A DNA stretch of 64,000 nt. Origin: an uncultured Spirochaetota bacterium. Lineage in GTDB: Bacteria; Spirochaetota; Brevinematia; Brevinematales; JAOACQ01. This document shows positions 23,897-53,976 of this stretch, piece by piece. Made by a program: the position numbers and the translations under genes. The DNA is taken from contig CAWAOD010000013.1 in the NCBI GenBank assembly GCA_963783575.1, positions 228,826 to 292,825 of the forward strand. The letters run 5' to 3'. How positions within the stretch are numbered: position 1 is the first letter of the stretch; every line of letters begins with the position of its first letter. Under the pieces are notes generated by a model that made no database searches, was not told the DNA's origin, and worked only from the letters and a program-made list of their open reading frames with translations.

Positions 23897-26355
23897 TAAT
23901 TAATAAAAAAGTTGATATCAATGGGACAAATGAATACGGGTGGACAGCTTTAATGATATCCGCAAACTACGGTTATAGAGATATATCTGAAACACTGATC
24001 AAGGCTAAAGCTGATATTCGTTTAATGAATAAATACGGATGGACGGCTTTTAGTATAGCGGCCTATAATGGGTATACAGACATAGTTCAAGATTTGATAG
24101 ATGCTGATGTAAATATTAATGCACAGGATAGTAGTGGACTTACAGCTTTGATGGTTGCCGTGTATGAAGACCATAAAGATACTGTTAAAATTTTAATTAA
24201 AAATGGATGCGATGTTAATTTAAAGAGTAAATTTGATCTGAATGCTTTGATGTTTGCTACTGCACTGGAATATACCGATGTTGTAAAATTATTAATTGAA
24301 GCCAAGGCAGATTTAAATTCAAAATGTATATATGACTGTACGGCTTTAATGCTTGCTGTTTATACAGGGAACATAGACACAGTAAAAGCTTTAATTGAGG
24401 CAGGAGCCGATATTAATGTAAAAGATGTTAAAGGCTGGACAGCTTTAATGGTGGCTGGTTACTACAACCAAACTGAAGTCGCTAAAGCATTAATAGAAAC
24501 AAAAGCTGATCTCAATACTCAGAATGAAGACGGCAAGACGGCTTTAATATTAGCAATTGGTAATGATAATACTGAAATAGTAAAAGTATTAATTGAAGCC
24601 GGAGCCAATGTCAATGTAAAGGATAAAGAAGGATTAACGGCCTTAATGCTTGCGGCCTACTTAAGCCAAACTGAAGCCGCTAAAGCATTGATAGAAGCAA
24701 AAGCCGATCTAAATGCACAGGAAAATAGCGGAAGTACCGCTTTGATGCAGGCTGTTCATAAAGGCAATCTGGATATAGTAAAAGCATTAATTGAAACCGG
24801 AGCTGATATTAATATAAAGGATAATGAAAATTGGACAGCCTTAATGATAGCTGCGAGTGACCCACAGGAAGATATTCTAAAAGTATTGATAGAAGCAAAA
24901 GCTGATCTCAATGTTCAGAATGAATACGAAAAGACTGCTTTGAATAATAGCAGTTTACAATGGAAATACTGACATAGTAAAAGTATTAATTGAGGCAGGG
25001 GCAGATATTAATATAAAGGATGATGAAGGTTGGACAGCTTTAATGGTTGCCGCTAGTTATCAAAATACTGACGCTGTAAAGGCATTGGTAAAAGCAAAAG
25101 CTGATCTCAATGTTCAGAAAGACGGCTGGACTGCTTTGATGCTAGCTATTGATAAAAATAATATTGACATTTCAAAAATATTAATAGAAGCAGGAGCAAA
25201 TGTAAATTTAAAAAATAATGATAGCCGTACAGCTTTGATGCTGGCTGTTTACAATGGTAATACAGATATTATTAAAGCATTAATTAAGGGTGGAGTTGAT
25301 GTTAATGCTAAAGATAGTAAGAATTGGACAGCTTTAATGGTATCTTCATTTTGTAACCAAACAGACGATGCTAATATATTAATAGAAGCAAAATCTGACC
25401 TTAATATTCAGAATGAATTCGGCATGACTGCTTTGATGATAACTGTTGAAAAAAATAATATTGACATATTAAAAGCATTGGTCGGAGCCGGAACCGATGT
25501 TAACTTGAAGGATAGCAAAAACTGGACAGCACTGATGCTAGCTGTTAGTGATAACTACACTGACGCTGCTAAGATATTAATAAAAGCAAAAGCAGGCCTG
25601 AATTTTCTAAAAGATGGCTATACTCCATTGATGTTGGCTATTCAAAAAAGTAATATTGACATAGTAAAAGCATTGATAATAGCAGGAGCTGATATTGATG
25701 TAAAGGGTAATAACAATTGGACAGCTTTAATGATTGCTGCCCGTTATCAACATACTGACGCATTAGAAGCTTTGATTGAAGCGAAAGCCGATCTCAATGT
25801 ACAGGAAAAAGAAGGTTGGACAGCAATTATGCTGGCAGATAGCATAAATCATAAGGATGCGGTGAAAACATTAATTAAGGCCAAAGCCGATCTTAATATA
25901 AGAAAAAATGATGGTTGGACAATTTTGATGATAGCAGTTGACAAAAATCAAACAGATATTGTTAAAGAATTGATTGAAGCAGGTGCAAATGTTAATAATA
26001 TAGATGAAGAAGGTGCAACAGCTTTATCGATTGCAAAGAAGAAAAAATATTATAATATAATTAAATTGCTTGAAGATGTTGGAGCAACAGAATGAGAAAT
26101 TTTTATGATTATTGAAATGGAATCTTCAACATCGCATCGCTCGCCGAATCAAAGATTCGGCGGCCATTTAAACTTCATAAAAAAGACTTCATGATTACTT
26201 AGTATAAATATTAAAAACCAGCAATCTACTTTTTCGAAAAGGTTTTCCACACAATCTTAAGATTAAAGAAATTAAATTGGTTAATTGCGCCCCGCAGAAG
26301 GAGCGCTATTTCCGATTAAGCTTTTATTATACTTTGAAAATGCTCAGTACTAAAA

Positions 26356-26557
26356 TTGTTGTTATTCTCCTTTAATGATAAATCGATGTGTTCGTATTTC
26401 GCAGCCAGGACGGCTGCGACCCGAACGCAGCAGGACTGCAAAGTGAGGCTCTTTAATAATGAAAGAACTGTTAATTAATTTGGAATAACAACACCTGGAA
26501 TGACCAGACCGTTATACATGAAATGGCGCTCATGCGAAGGGGTGATTTTTCTTTTTG
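26356..26557 (+). repeat. About 200-bp intergenic repeat, family C
   Basis: Aligns with the reverse complement of 50645-50846. Shared blocks TGTTCGTATTTCGC, AACGCAGCAGGACTGCAAAGTGAGGCTCTTT and ATGCGAAGGGGTGATTTTTCTTTTTG. Confidence 0.88.
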
Positions 26558-46046: not shown

Positions 46047-47737
46047 CAGACTGTGTGAAAACACAGTAAATATGCTATAATTATTAGAACAAAAATAATC
46101 GGAGTAAAAGATGAAGCATATTGAGGGAGAATCAAGGGATCAGATAGTTCTGTTCAATGAAACACTGGAAGATCTGTTAGGAGAAGAAGATCCGGTAAGG
46201 TTTATAGATATTTTTGTTGATAAGCTAAATATGAAAGGAGTTGGTTTTAAAGTAAAAGAAGCATCAACCGGCAGAAGTTCATATAAATCCGAAATACTTT
46301 TAAAAATCTATATTTACGGATATTTGAATAAAATCAGGACAAGCAGGAAATTAGAGAGAGAGTGCCGAAGAAACACAGAGTTGATGTGGCTGACTGGACG
46401 ACTAGCGCCGGATTTCAAGACGATTGCCGACTTCAGGAAAGATAATAAGAAGGGAATACAGTCGATATTCAGAGAATTTTTGAAGATATGTCATAAAGCC
46501 GGGCTTTTATCATTTGACGTTGTTGGAATTGATGGAACCAAGATCAGTGCGCAAAACCACAATAACAATGTTTATCATAGGAAAAACATAGAAGAAATCA
46601 TACATAGAATAGATCAAAAGATCGAAGAATATTTGAATGAGATGGATAAGAACGATAAGGAAGAAAAGAATGAATTTGAATTTCTTTCCGGAAAGATAGC
46701 GGAACGTTTAAAGAAAATGAAAACAAAAAAGGATAAAGTTGAGGCTATTAAAAAGATTTTTGAGGGAAATCCTGAAATGGAGAAATATTATTCAAATGAC
46801 CCGGAAAGCCGGTTTATGAATGATAAAGGGAAATCCGACATTGCATATAATCTGCAGATGGCAGTAGATGATGCGAATAAACTGATTGTGGCGATTGATG
46901 TGACGAATGAAAACAATGATATCAAACAGATGGCAGGAATGTGTGACCGAGTAGAAGAAATAAAGGACGAGCTTAAGGTAGAGACTGAAACGGTCAAAGT
47001 ATCGGATGCCGGTTATTACAGCGAACCGCAGATACTGGAATGTATAGATAAGGGACATAACGTATATATGCCGAATCCGGATGACGGACATAAGGCAAGG
47101 ATTCGAGGCAAAGAAGATAATAAAGGAGTACCTGCTGAAGAATACCAGGTTGATAAATTCAAATATGATCCGGGACAAGATGTTTATTATTGTCCGGAGG
47201 GAAACCCATTAGTGAGAAATGGGAAAAAAGTAGAGAAGGTCAATGGAGGAAAAGAGATAGTCAGGTACAAGTGCGGCTTATGCAGCCAATGTGAAGTAAG
47301 AAATAAGTGTACTGAAAGCGTGGAAGGACGAAGTATCAAAGTACCAGTTAGAAAAGAAGAAATTGAGAACTTCAAGAGGAAAATTCGTTCTGAAGCCGGG
47401 AAAAAGATCATAGAGAAAAGGAAAGAGATATGTGAACATCCATTTGGATCGATAAAAAGGAATATGGGTTACAGTTATTTTTTAATGAAGGGAAAGGATG
47501 GCGTTCTGACGGAATCCAGTTTGGCAGGATTCATTCATAATTTAATAAAAGTATTGAATATATTGGGAATAAAGAGACTTATGACTCTGGTTTGATGCTA
47601 ATAAACCATCGTTTATCGTATTCGGATAGATTTTTGAAACTAAGATTTTTTTAGCTTGAAAAATATATCAAAAAATGGAGTTTTTGTATAATTAATCGAT
47701 TTTACTATAAAATTTTACTGAGTTTTCACACAGTCTG
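46047..47737 (+). mobile_element. IS1182-family insertion sequence (1691 bp) inserted in a family-A REP
   Basis: TIR CAGACTGTGTGAAAACACAGTAAA / TTTACTGAGTTTTCACACAGTCTG (23/24). TTA duplicated. Confidence 0.92.
46111..47595 (+). CDS. IS1182-family transposase
   Basis: LLKIYIYGY...SRKLE...PDFKTIADFRK, IDGTK, DAGY, EHPFGSIK. Confidence 0.95.
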   Translation: MKHIEGESRDQIVLFNETLEDLLGEEDPVRFIDIFVDKLNMKGVGFKVKEASTGRSSYKSEILLKIYIYGYLNKIRTSRKLERECRRNTELMWLTGRLAPDFKTIADFRKDNKKGIQSIFREFLKICHKAGLLSFDVVGIDGTKISAQNHNNNVYHRKNIEEIIHRIDQKIEEYLNEMDKNDKEEKNEFEFLSGKIAERLKKMKTKKDKVEAIKKIFEGNPEMEKYYSNDPESRFMNDKGKSDIAYNLQMAVDDANKLIVAIDVTNENNDIKQMAGMCDRVEEIKDELKVETETVKVSDAGYYSEPQILECIDKGHNVYMPNPDDGHKARIRGKEDNKGVPAEEYQVDKFKYDPGQDVYYCPEGNPLVRNGKKVEKVNGGKEIVRYKCGLCSQCEVRNKCTESVEGRSIKVPVRKEEIENFKRKIRSEAGKKIIEKRKEICEHPFGSIKRNMGYSYFLMKGKDGVLTESSLAGFIHNLIKVLNILGIKRLMTLV

Positions 47738-50644: not shown

Positions 50645-50846
50645 CAAAAAGAAAAATCACCCCTTCGCATAAACGCCATTTCATGTGCAGCAATCGGTTT
50701 ATACTGAGGTGATGTTATTTCATGTTTTATTAAAGATTTTCTTATTTTAAAAGAGCCTCACTTTGCAGTCCTGCTGCGTTAGGGTCGTGGCCCTCCGTGG
50801 CCGCGAAATACGAACAGATCGATTGATCATTATAGGGGAATAACAA
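50645..50846 (-). repeat. About 200-bp intergenic repeat, family C
   Basis: Reverse complement aligns with 26356-26557. Confidence 0.88.
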
Positions 50847-50947
50847 CTTTTTTATACCAAGTTCACTTATTTTCTTCAGAGTAGATAATCAGAAATGGCG
50901 CTCCTGCTGCGATGTTATGATAAAATGAGGAAATAAAAAAAGAAATT

Positions 50948-51179
50948 TTGACAGGTGAGGGAGATGGTATTAAACTCTGCCCGGATATACTCAAGATGGG
51001 TATAAAAAGGCAGAAGAAGGCTGGCTGCTCCCCTGGGATATAACGGGATTCTTTTTGAGAATACCGAATAAAGCCCGAAGCTGCGAATAGTCCAGCCTTC
51101 TTCCTTACCAACATTATGGGACCGGAGCAAAGCTCCTGAACCCGAATAGACGGATGGCTGCCATTACTCAGCCCGTCAA
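50948..51179 (+). ncRNA. Predicted bridge/seek RNA
   Basis: Closing stem TTGACAGGTGAG / CTCAGCCCGTCAA. 12-bp stem GAAGAAGGCTGG / CCAGCCTTCTTC encloses target-matching segments. A second GGG-hairpin-CCC loop has donor-matching segments. Folded by eye. Confidence 0.75.
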
Positions 51180-51236
51180 GGTGACTTTTTTATATTTCTT
51201 CTTAAGTATTCTAAAACATAAGAAGGAGAGTGTCAA

Positions 51237-52307
51237 ATGTATTACGGAGTTGATTTGCATTCGGATAATCTGAAGGTTGCGATTCTTGGGGATAACGAAA
51301 CTGAACCGAAAATATTCAGATCGAGCCTTGAACCAAAGTATTTTGAAAAGTTTTTAAGCCGGTTAACAAAAGATGATTACATTGCAGTAGAAGCATCAAC
51401 AAACACATTCTGGTTTTATGACCAGGTTAAACCTCTGGTCGCGGAATGTTATGTAATCAATCCCGGTAAATTCCAATTGGTTTCAAACTCAATGGTCAAG
51501 ACAGATAAGAGGGACGCTATCAGTATTGTAAGAATGCTTAAATATAGTGTAATTACCGGAGAACCTTTACATACCATTTATATACCTAATTTGGAAGTAA
51601 GGGAAATCCGCGGGCTATTTACAACATATAAGCTTTTTAAGACGGATATTGTCAGAATGAAAAACAGGATTCATTCATTATTAAAGCAGAACGGTTACAA
51701 ACAGGAACGGGAAAGCCTGAATGTTAAAGGTACAAAAGAACAAATTCTTCAGCTTGATTTAAGCGAAACTGTAAAATTTGAGATAAATCTATTGTACAAG
51801 CAGATGGAAGAAATGATTAACAGTGCTAATGAAATAAAGAAAGAGATCTTGGTAAAAGGCAAGATATTCAAAGAGGAAATAAAATTACTAATGAGTATAA
51901 AAGGCATTAGTCCATTTACCGCGATAGGAATAATGTCGGATGTGGCTGATATTAACCGTTTTAACAGTGTAAAAGACTTTTGTTCTTATCTGAGATCGGC
52001 TCCAAAAGTGGATTCCTCGAATAAAATGACGAAAATCGGAAAGCTTAATAAGAAGTCAAGACGTTTAACGATGGAGTTATTAATCCAGAGCATTCAACAC
52101 TTTCGGGATTGTAAGAAATTTAATTATTTTTATGAAAAGAAAAGTAAAGGTAAGTCAAAAGGCAAAGTCAGGGTTGCATTAGCAAGAAAAGTCATGGTAG
52201 CTATTTATCATATGCTTAAAAAGAAAGAGTTGTTTTACTACATTGATAAGAAGTGTTATGAAAGCAAAATGTGTGAGTACAATAATTTCTTAAAAAAAGC
52301 CGCTTAA
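51237..52307 (+). CDS. IS110-family DEDD recombinase/transposase
   Basis: YGVDLH, VEAS, KTDKRDA (DEDD), SIKGIS, APKVDSSN (catalytic Ser region), VALARK. Confidence 0.95.
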   Translation: MYYGVDLHSDNLKVAILGDNETEPKIFRSSLEPKYFEKFLSRLTKDDYIAVEASTNTFWFYDQVKPLVAECYVINPGKFQLVSNSMVKTDKRDAISIVRMLKYSVITGEPLHTIYIPNLEVREIRGLFTTYKLFKTDIVRMKNRIHSLLKQNGYKQERESLNVKGTKEQILQLDLSETVKFEINLLYKQMEEMINSANEIKKEILVKGKIFKEEIKLLMSIKGISPFTAIGIMSDVADINRFNSVKDFCSYLRSAPKVDSSNKMTKIGKLNKKSRRLTMELLIQSIQHFRDCKKFNYFYEKKSKGKSKGKVRVALARKVMVAIYHMLKKKELFYYIDKKCYESKMCEYNNFLKKAA

Positions 52308-52458
52308 ACTCTTTACTTTTATCATAGACGGGGGGCAGGATTTTGTACTCGATACTTTTCATCTCTTTGCCCTTGTGATTATTGATTGGGACGGAATTAT
52401 AAGTAGAAAAAATAGTTATAATATAAGGCAGTTCTATTCTGTTTCTTATGTTTTTATT

Positions 52459-53976
52459 TTAGATAATTAATATTTTATCAGATCGTACACTTCCTATTCT
52501 CATATTTACACCGGGTTTTCTTACAATTTGCTTTTCCCACTCAATATCTTCAATAACCCAAGTTTTCATATATTCAATTGACTCTTTAATTAATTTAACT
52601 AAATTTAATTTAACATTTTCAATTATTGCTTTCTCATCATAGACACCAACAAATATTTCATTGTGACCTTGTGTTTTATCAAAATCTTCATGAATCAATT
52701 TTATTCTATCATAAATATAATTACTAATTTTATTATTTGGATAATCACTACCTTTCACTATTCCTTTGTTTATTAATTTAAATATATAATCTTCTTGAAG
52801 ATTAAAATCATATGATATATAAACTGGACAACAAAACCCATTTTCCCATCCACCTGTTATTTTAATAATAAGTTCATTATTTAAATCAAGAATTATCTTG
52901 TATGCTGAGAACATCGAACTTAATGATAATTCCTCAAATACATTCATTATAATATTTTTAGTTTTATTTAATAATTCTACTTTTTTAGTTCTTTTTAAAT
53001 TTTCTTCTTCTTTTATTCTATGCAATTCTTCAATACTGCTAATGGTATCTTGTTTTTTATTCTTTATTTCAGCTAAGATATTATCAAATGTATCTTTACT
53101 TTGTTCAAATATAATTTTTTTATTTGTATTATTAAATATTTCCAAACGTTTTTTGTAATCTTTAATTAACATGTTTTTAACAAATGAACAAATCTCGGTT
53201 TTAAAATCAACCCGTTGAATTGTTGGAATTTCATCTTTTATTGCAACAACCAATTTTGCATATGGTTCGGAATACTGCTTGAACAACTCATAGCCCATAA
53301 TTTTATCATGTAATACACCGCCAATTTGGTAAATATTGATTGCTCTCCATGATTCTTCATCATTTTTTTCTTATCTAAACAAATATTCTGGTGGTGCATA
53401 CCTTAAAGTACCGAAAAACGGTTTATTTCCTAATATATCAGTAATTGTCGGATCATCAATTACTTTCATTACACCTAAATCCATTAAGACCAGATCGTTT
53501 TTATCATTAATCATAATATTTTCTGGTTTTATATCTCTATGGACAACCCCTATCTTTAATAATTCTTCAGTTACATTAAATAAAATGTTAAAAGTATTTT
53601 TTATACATTCCTCATCCTGAGCACCTTTATTTATTATATATTCTTTAAGAGTAATTCCGTTAATAAATTCCATAATAATAAAATAATATTTGTCAGATTT
53701 ATTTGATATGCTTCCACCATCTAATATATTTACTAAATTATTAATTTTGTGATCTATTAATTTTAATTCATGATCTACTCTTGCTTTTTCTGTTTCATCT
53801 CCATATTTTTCAATTATCTCATTATCAAATATTTTAATTGCAACAGAATTTCCATCCTGATCTGATCTAAATACAACAGCAGATTTACCGTATCCTAATA
53901 TTGAATTTATTGTATATCCTTTTATATTTATCTTTTTAAAAATTTCTAAATATTCTTCTGATTTTCTTTTATCCAT
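52459..53976 (-). pseudogene. Low-GC Hanks-type Ser/Thr kinase with a C-terminal extension and a single in-frame TAA at 53371-53373
   Basis: LGYGKSAVV, VAIK, HRDIKPEN, DLG, GTLRYAPPE. The frame continues *EKNDEESWRAINIYQIGGVLHD into ORF 52459-53298. Confidence 0.85.

Follow-up and report, generated by a model that had tools for sequence, protein, structure and literature searches.

The window analyzed here, a 64,000-bp stretch of contig C13 from an uncultured Spirochaetota genome (G000; 4.9 Mb in 18 contigs, 90% complete), carries an IS110-family element inserted in a roughly 280-bp repeat that we designate family C. The recombinase combines an N-terminal DEDD domain (PF01548) with a C-terminal domain (PF02371) containing the conserved serine and scores 174 bits against the NCBIfam model NF033542 (cut-off, 140). 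Noncoding sequence extends for 325 bp upstream and 21 bp downstream of its gene. The element is laid out as follows.

50912-52328, plus strand: IS110-family element of 1,417 bp, with a CG core on either side
50910-50911, plus strand: left core dinucleotide CG, placed from empty repeat copies and homolog covariation
50916-50925, plus strand: left subterminal inverted repeat, 10 bp, perfect
51237-52307, plus strand: IS110 recombinase, 356 amino acids, DEDD residues (D6/E52/D90/D93) and S261 present
52312-52326, plus strand: -35-like hexamer (52312-52317) overlapping the right subterminal inverted repeat (52317-52326)
52329-52330, plus strand: right core dinucleotide CG, placed from empty repeat copies and homolog covariation

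Element ends and core

Empty copies of one end of the repeat (end 2) read ...ATGCTG-CG-GGGNGC with a single CG, and the occupied copies on contigs C5 and C13 read ...GCTG-CG-[ATGTTATG...CATAGA]-CG-GGGGGC. Because joining the occupied flanks over a single CG reproduces the empty copies, we place the core at CG and not at GA, as an earlier note on this DNA had proposed. The reconstructed empty site in the window, GCTG-CG-GGGGGCAG, is three bases shorter than the one in that note, whose occupied site, GCTGCGACGGGGGGCAG, includes the first base of the element and the second copy of the CG core and thus is not the preinsertion sequence. Its TGCGACGGGG does not occur in the genome, where empty copies read GCTG-CG-GGGNGC. 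A GA core with an A-to-C change upon insertion was also considered and was dropped after alignment of the empty end-2 copies.

When the ends are joined computationally over CG, the -35-like hexamer lies 17 bp from a -10-like hexamer formed by the first six bases of the left inverted repeat, giving a predicted circle-junction promoter; a GA core would leave 14 bp. The 17-bp spacer recurs in 31 of 43 parsed related elements (the search pattern allowed 15 to 20 bp). Eight base pairs separate the inverted repeats in the computed circle, with the longer side on the left. Three lines of evidence agree in placing the core at CG: the empty repeat copies, the junction spacer, and the way guides covary with flanks over 40 guide pairs (see below).

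Predicted bridge RNA

The long noncoding end is predicted to encode a bridge RNA, and the guide loop that the earlier note had recognized at 51025-51086 was borne out. The region from 50985 to 51200 folds with a z score of -4.05, and the stems around the variable guides are conserved in 18 aligned elements (at least 40% identity). The window gave no Rfam match at the gathering threshold.

51010-51165, plus strand: predicted bridge RNA (limits approximate), a target-binding stem-loop followed by a donor-binding loop
51025-51033, plus strand: 5' target guide, a top-strand match formed by the complement of the right flank, with one further base facing the core G
51079-51086, plus strand: 3' target guide, left flank and core CG (51079-51085), then handshake base A (51086)
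51108-51116, plus strand: 5' donor guide, complementary to the outermost bases of the left end, assigned by eye only
51145-51153, plus strand: 3' donor guide, last bases of the right end, core CG, and handshake G

Together, the target guides spell the 14-mer AGCTG-CG-GGGAGCA. The joined 17-mer previously taken as the target contains an extra A that corresponds to the handshake base at 51086, and its best genomic matches (one site at 15/17 and two at 14/17) all lie outside the repeat.

Covariation of guides and flanks in related elements

We collected 111 related loci by alignment search (single-protein locus searches gave no matches), set aside 7 as duplicates or a remnant, and parsed both ends in 43 of the remaining 104, yielding 40 distinct guide pairs. 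Named genome records holding these relatives are Spirochaetota or unclassified. Across the 40 pairs, the 3' target guide agreed with the left flank at 4.32 of 6 positions (permuted mean, 1.58; maximum, 2.4 in 5,000 permutations) and 5.32 of 7 positions of the 5' target guide agreed with the right-flank complement (permuted mean, 1.97; maximum, 2.8), figures that overstate significance because the homologs are related. Guides and flanks nevertheless vary widely over the set despite this kinship, and their match peaked at one register only. The core was matched by the target guide in 40/40 pairs and by the donor guide in 39/40; covariation covers three of the four guides, the 5' donor guide being assigned by eye. 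Natural cores among the 43 elements were CG (30), TG (9), GG (3), and AG (1). In 38/40 pairs, the guide base that follows the core is identical to the first element base, and the corresponding donor-loop base equals the first right-flank base in 25/40; this pattern appears to be the handshake pairing described for IS621 (PMC11208158).

Searches of host genomes for homolog targets suggested that some relatives occupy repeats in the genomes that carry them, but comparison with controls gave a mixed picture: 4 sites were found in G011 and 8 in G346 (control, 0 in each), and the counts elsewhere were 5 versus 6 control sites in G239, 2 versus 4 in G295, and 0 in G013. Two subgroups stood out by target. 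The guides of L099, L109, L035, and L064-L066 are aimed at a TAAC-GTTCCGG site, four empty matches of which lie 1.2 to 2.3 kb apart on one strand at G346 C1:2055045-2060598, resembling a gene cassette array; these spaced matches may be attC-like. The target of L002, L008, L010, L016, L020, and L021 is a CTTCG-(A/G)CAGGCTC repeat, which is also present in G000 (2 exact sites) and G011 (4).

The family-C repeat

Two copies of the repeat lie in the window.

50648-50911, plus strand: family-C repeat holding the element, with end 1 inverted (50648-50726), a central hairpin module, and end 2 (50849-50911)
about 52331-52345: remainder of the occupied end 2, 3' of the element
26279-26554, no single strand: second, empty family-C repeat, with end 2 on the minus strand (26279-26356) and end 1 on the plus strand (26477-26554)

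Profiles made from the copies in this genome detected 28 end-1 and 40 end-2 motifs (E < 0.01), which form 29 inverted pairings (one end 1 is used twice) and leave 11 lone end-2 motifs. Nineteen of the 29 pairings span 255 to 295 bp; the inner arms are conserved and the center is exchangeable, in several subtypes. Both ends open with GAAATGGCGCT(C/A)ATGC, followed by GAAGGGG in end 1 and TGCGGGG in end 2, so that the four bases next to the common prefix differ (GAAG versus TGCG). By eye, the alignment shows end 2 as an imperfect palindrome around the core, and one copy of the repeat folds at a z score of -3.82. By open reading frame (ORF) calls, the repeats are intergenic apart from nested insertion sequences and two short overlapping frames. 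Family C thus has two REP-like palindromes in inverted orientation, a conserved spacer, an intergenic location, and multiple copies, as expected of a REPIN, and we regard its anatomy as REPIN-like on these sequence features.

Outside the host, the repeat was found in the one same-genus genome (8 pattern matches; control, 0). Among 401 genomes of the phylum, a strong match occurred only in that genome, with five weak matches besides. Rfam returned only subthreshold noise for the repeat, and a literature search, not aimed at spirochaete repeats, found no description of it.

Both Y1_Tnp (RAYT-like) genes in the host (L121:1429-1991 and L122:1426-1782, at G000 C3:121030 and C4:184483) adjoin end 2, which faces them within 600 bp and, in one case, on both sides. 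Both genes look broken, one apparently frameshifted and one truncated, and have different palindromes of their own inside.

The family-C repeat is a landing site common to several mobile elements. Inserts in its center lie at G000 C4:185334-187439, C15:201559-204355, C3:326873-327307, C4:91805-92239, and C5:365216-365708; judging from protein starts, these presumably include an IS1182-type element and an IS21-like gene pair, the others being MITE-like inserts of roughly 130 to 155 bp. Within the window, an intact-looking transposase gene with DUF772 and DDE_Tnp_1_6 domains is present at 46111-47595, and further copies occur next to or within several family-C repeats.

Insertions and target preference in the host genome

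Three full, near-identical copies of the element are present in the host genome, on C13 (the window), C5, and C16; at 90% genome completeness, further copies may be missing. Relative to the C13 copy, those on C5 and C16 each show 9 differences in 1,416 bases, none of them in the upstream noncoding end, and this near-identity indicates that the family moved recently. The C13 and C5 copies occupy the same base of end 2 in the same orientation. They represent separate insertions, because their flanks differ while the elements differ at only 9/1,416 bases. The C16 copy lies between two host ORFs in a nonrepeat site that matches the guide at 13/14 positions. We considered this site as a decayed repeat end and rejected the idea: 5.7% of background positions score at least as high as its upstream sequence on the repeat profile, and the match is confined to the guide footprint. 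Occupancy is thus 2/40 for end 2 and 0/28 for end 1. The element was not found in the one same-genus genome (57% complete), which carries the repeat, and one DNA sequencing run yielded two short contigs, both internal to the element. A diverged, frameshifted 3' remnant of a related IS110 element (63% identity) lies at G000 C9:398616-399317 (L007), with the same right end and CG core and a different flank.

These observations modify the earlier proposal that the guides are programmed against a dispersed intergenic repeat. Guides matching such a repeat and insertion there stood up (two of three copies, at the same base), but the core, target sequence, and repeat end given were wrong. The motifs quoted at 26520-26549 and 50654-50683 are present as written; however, the TGCGAAGGGG motif taken as the target belongs to end 1, while the element sits in end 2. 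The resemblance that had been noticed arises because the two ends share a prefix and differ in the next four bases. In the empty repeat of the window, the target site in end 2 (26286-26299) matches the guide at 11/14, and end 1 holds the quoted motif. The accompanying expectation that all insertions lie in family-C-related sequence was borne out for two of three copies and failed for C16, so that what the earlier note had named as refuting its idea was partly observed.

No perfect 14/14 site for AGCTG-CG-GGGAGCA exists in the genome. End 2 makes up 0.09% of the genome and contains 3/3 of the sites matching at 13/14, 7/18 of those at 12/14, and 14/79 of those at 11/14; no site at 11/14 to 13/14 falls within end 1. 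Among controls, 0/39 other guides and 0/60 shuffled guides matched end 2 at 12/14 or better. The mean match was 10.6/14 for empty end-2 copies (n = 38) and 5.7/14 for end-1 copies (n = 28), and the guide has the commonest end-2 base at 12 of 14 positions. At two positions where the guide could wobble, 27/38 and 35/38 empty end-2 copies carry A or G. The outermost left guide position has A versus T in all 38 empty end-2 copies, and this position agrees with the flank in just 57% of homologs. The three best end-2 sites (13/14) are empty, and the occupied end-2 sites match at 12/14 and 11/14. Counting empty sites with at most one true mismatch, 13/23 lie in end 2, and guide pairing alone would therefore explain two of three insertions there. 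The preference for end 2 appears to be by sequence and not exclusive, given the one copy in a 13/14 nonrepeat site.

Proposed mechanism and alternatives

We conclude, with a probability of about 0.87, that this is an intact, recently mobile bridge recombinase element whose guides spell end 2 of a REPIN-like intergenic repeat. The ends, core, four guide positions, handshake base, and target preference are demonstrated at the level of sequence comparison; the insertions known number three, one of them outside the repeat. By analogy with IS621 (PMC11208160, PMC11208158), the element would form a circle whose junction would build a sigma70-type promoter, and this promoter would express the bridge RNA now lying upstream. 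The target loop would pair with both strands of the 14-bp site around the CG core, the donor loop would pair with the joined element ends, and recombination at CG would insert the element. In sequence, the guides correspond to the loop of end 2 and the stem beside it. Two uracils of the 5' guide would face the A/G-variable positions of the repeat, and tolerance of wobble there, by U:A or U:G pairing, would cover most copies. The element may benefit from landing between genes, and the notion of a safe harbour put forward in the earlier note would fit the intergenic position of the repeat.

The alternative already contained in that note, with a GA core, a 17-nucleotide target, and insertion in the TGCGAAGGGG motif of end 1, draws on a 3' guide that reads GCTGCGAA and on the abundance of TGCGAAGGGG, which has 17 exact genomic sites (13 of these, judged by sequence context, belong to end 1) but in the window occurs twice at no more than one mismatch against 2.46 expected. 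It requires an unexplained A-to-C change at all three insertions, shortens the promoter spacer from 17 to 14 bp, and must contend with 28 unoccupied end-1 copies that match the guide poorly (mean, 5.7/14) and with a 17-mer for which no genome site exceeds 15/17. In homologs, moreover, the base after the core follows the element end and not the target (38/40). The empty end-2 alleles already refute this version, and we give it virtually no credence. Nearly as implausible is a single insertion later duplicated together with its repeat instead of repeated targeting: both occupied repeats do carry the element at the same base in the same orientation, but the flanks differ on both sides of elements that are 99.4% identical, a divergence that largely refutes duplication, and the third copy has unrelated flanks.

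Two further possibilities concern how the guide came to fit end 2 and what else might be needed. The guide could owe its specificity to a different target in a previous host and fit family C by chance, consistent with the lack of a perfect genomic site, with a third insertion that is the best guide fit yet lies outside the repeat, and with the element not being found in the one same-genus genome that has the repeat (57% complete). We consider such an incidental match improbable, since none of the 99 control guides reaches end 2 at 12/14 or better, 12 of 14 guide positions carry the commonest end-2 base, and some relatives likewise occupy repeats of their hosts. More substantial, though still doubtful, is a requirement for structure besides sequence, in which the end-2 hairpin gates insertion in addition to guide pairing, as reported for ISPpu10 (10.64898/2026.03.19.712850). 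The core lies within the imperfect palindrome of end 2, and the repeat insertions occurred at weaker matches (11/14 and 12/14) than the nonrepeat one (13/14). Against this, no gate is needed for two of three insertions when end 2 already supplies 13/23 of the empty sites that have no more than one true mismatch, and the C16 site is no repeat end. Our preferred reading remains guide-directed insertion into end 2. Because the sister ends differ mainly in four loop bases, they could serve as a natural test of guide-only versus guide-plus-hairpin recognition.

Classification and relation to known systems

The element passes those tests of the IS110 family that we ran and fails the strict tests of both subgroups, as far as sequence allows this to be judged. 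For the broad family, the domains and conserved serine are present, the core is doubled at the ends and single in the empty target, and the loops of the predicted bridge RNA match and covary with target and donor. Neither strict subgroup fits, because the guide order is that of IS1111 and the RNA has the upstream position typical of the IS110 group. The long upstream noncoding end agrees with the strict IS110 group (IS621 type), but the guides do not follow its bottom-strand-first order, the reverse order holding across 40 guide pairs, and the inverted repeats are perfect over 10 bp instead of absent or 2 to 3 bp. The IS1111 group shares the order of top-strand complement before bottom-strand match, a criterion taken from PMC11187229. 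Inverted repeats in that group are given as usually 11 to 13 bp (PMC11187229) or as 7 to 17 bp (PMC11208160), compared with 10 bp here. The element departs from the IS1111 group in having 8 bp between the repeats instead of terminal extensions of 7 + 3 (or 6 + 3) bp, although the longer side is the left, as in IS1111; in its upstream rather than downstream long noncoding region; and in reading YLRSAPKVDSSNK in place of the GL-P----S(t)G motif. Section 6 of PMC11187229 lists exceptions to a downstream RNA, such as ISMtsp17.

The best named full-length relative in the plasmid collection was ISLin1 of Leptospira interrogans (NZ_CP092665.1, NZ_CP043881.1), at 27% identity. In two copies, ISLin1 shares the long upstream noncoding end, a 5' guide complementary to the right flank, a 3' guide equal to the left flank plus an NG core, a CATAG-N right end, and a location in repeated host sequence; it differs in its AG core, its guides, and its target repeat, and its protein is only 27% identical. 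The common layout suggests a clade with ISLin1. The literature search returned no description of the layout of such an ISLin1-like clade, and it is not mentioned in the available portions of 10.1101/2025.05.14.653916, 10.64898/2026.08.14.744561, PMC13626964, or 10.1101/2025.10.25.684509. Tentatively, the clade may represent a third bridge-RNA layout (upstream RNA, IS1111-type order, varying NG core) repeatedly re-aimed at multicopy sites of its hosts, with the guide here tuned by U:G wobble, and possibly by a hairpin requirement, so that it reads a single sister end of a REPIN-like element not described before and ignores the other; we regard this full proposal as possible and not as the likelier case.

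IS621 of Escherichia coli, as described in PMC11208160 and PMC11208158, resembles the element in its left-end bridge RNA with the target loop before the donor loop, its 2-bp core within a target of 14 bp, its handshake bases and junction promoter (predicted here), and its insertion in REP repeats. It differs in its CT core, reversed guide order relative to the element, and subterminal inverted repeats of 2 to 3 bp, and its recombinase is only distantly related (profile E value, 1.5e-8). In the IS1111-type ISPa11, ISKpn4, and ISEc11, according to the account in PMC11187229, the noncoding region is usually downstream, 10 or 9 bp separate the inverted repeats in the circle, and an S-G motif stands where S-N is found here. 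ISPpu10, ISPpu9, and other REP-targeting insertion sequences (PMC1525189; 10.64898/2026.03.19.712850) likewise insert at one position of a multicopy intergenic palindrome, in a different repeat and host phylum; they are reported there with all insertions in the repeat and a demonstrated stem-loop gate, compared with two of three insertions here. Like REPINs as defined in PMC3337134, family C has two related hairpin motifs, inverted and separated by a spacer of conserved length. Unlike them, it is longer (about 280 bp), has consistently different ends and a center in several subtypes, and lies near two Y1 transposase genes that look broken and have other palindromes of their own.

Targeting of palindromic repeats is not new, because IS110 examples have been known for two decades and RNA guides since 2024; insertion of family members into REP repeats is described in PMC11208160, PMC1525189, PMC11187229 (ISPa11), and 10.64898/2026.03.19.712850. 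What is added here is a clean further example and a corrected target. The set of 43 relatives, in which guides are paired with flanks and the core takes four natural forms, could also supply bridge recombinases free of the CT core.

Other features of the window and genome

Adjoining the element, the window contains low-GC frames on the minus strand (52459-53976), where a 201-amino-acid ORF with a protein kinase domain ends just before a 279-amino-acid ORF without a Pfam match; the two are possibly one split gene. A second IS110-type family, with about 25% identity and an AG core, is represented in the host genome by five copies with an intact right end and one partial copy.

Second IS110-type family, G000: C16:218154-219125, C9:167938-168909, C14:299993-300964, C11:124589-125560, C11:180598-181314, C12:19145-19696

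Its right end finishes with GGAG, and a host gene begins with its start codon 5 to 7 bases further on; this family therefore appears to insert into and restore ribosome-binding sites.
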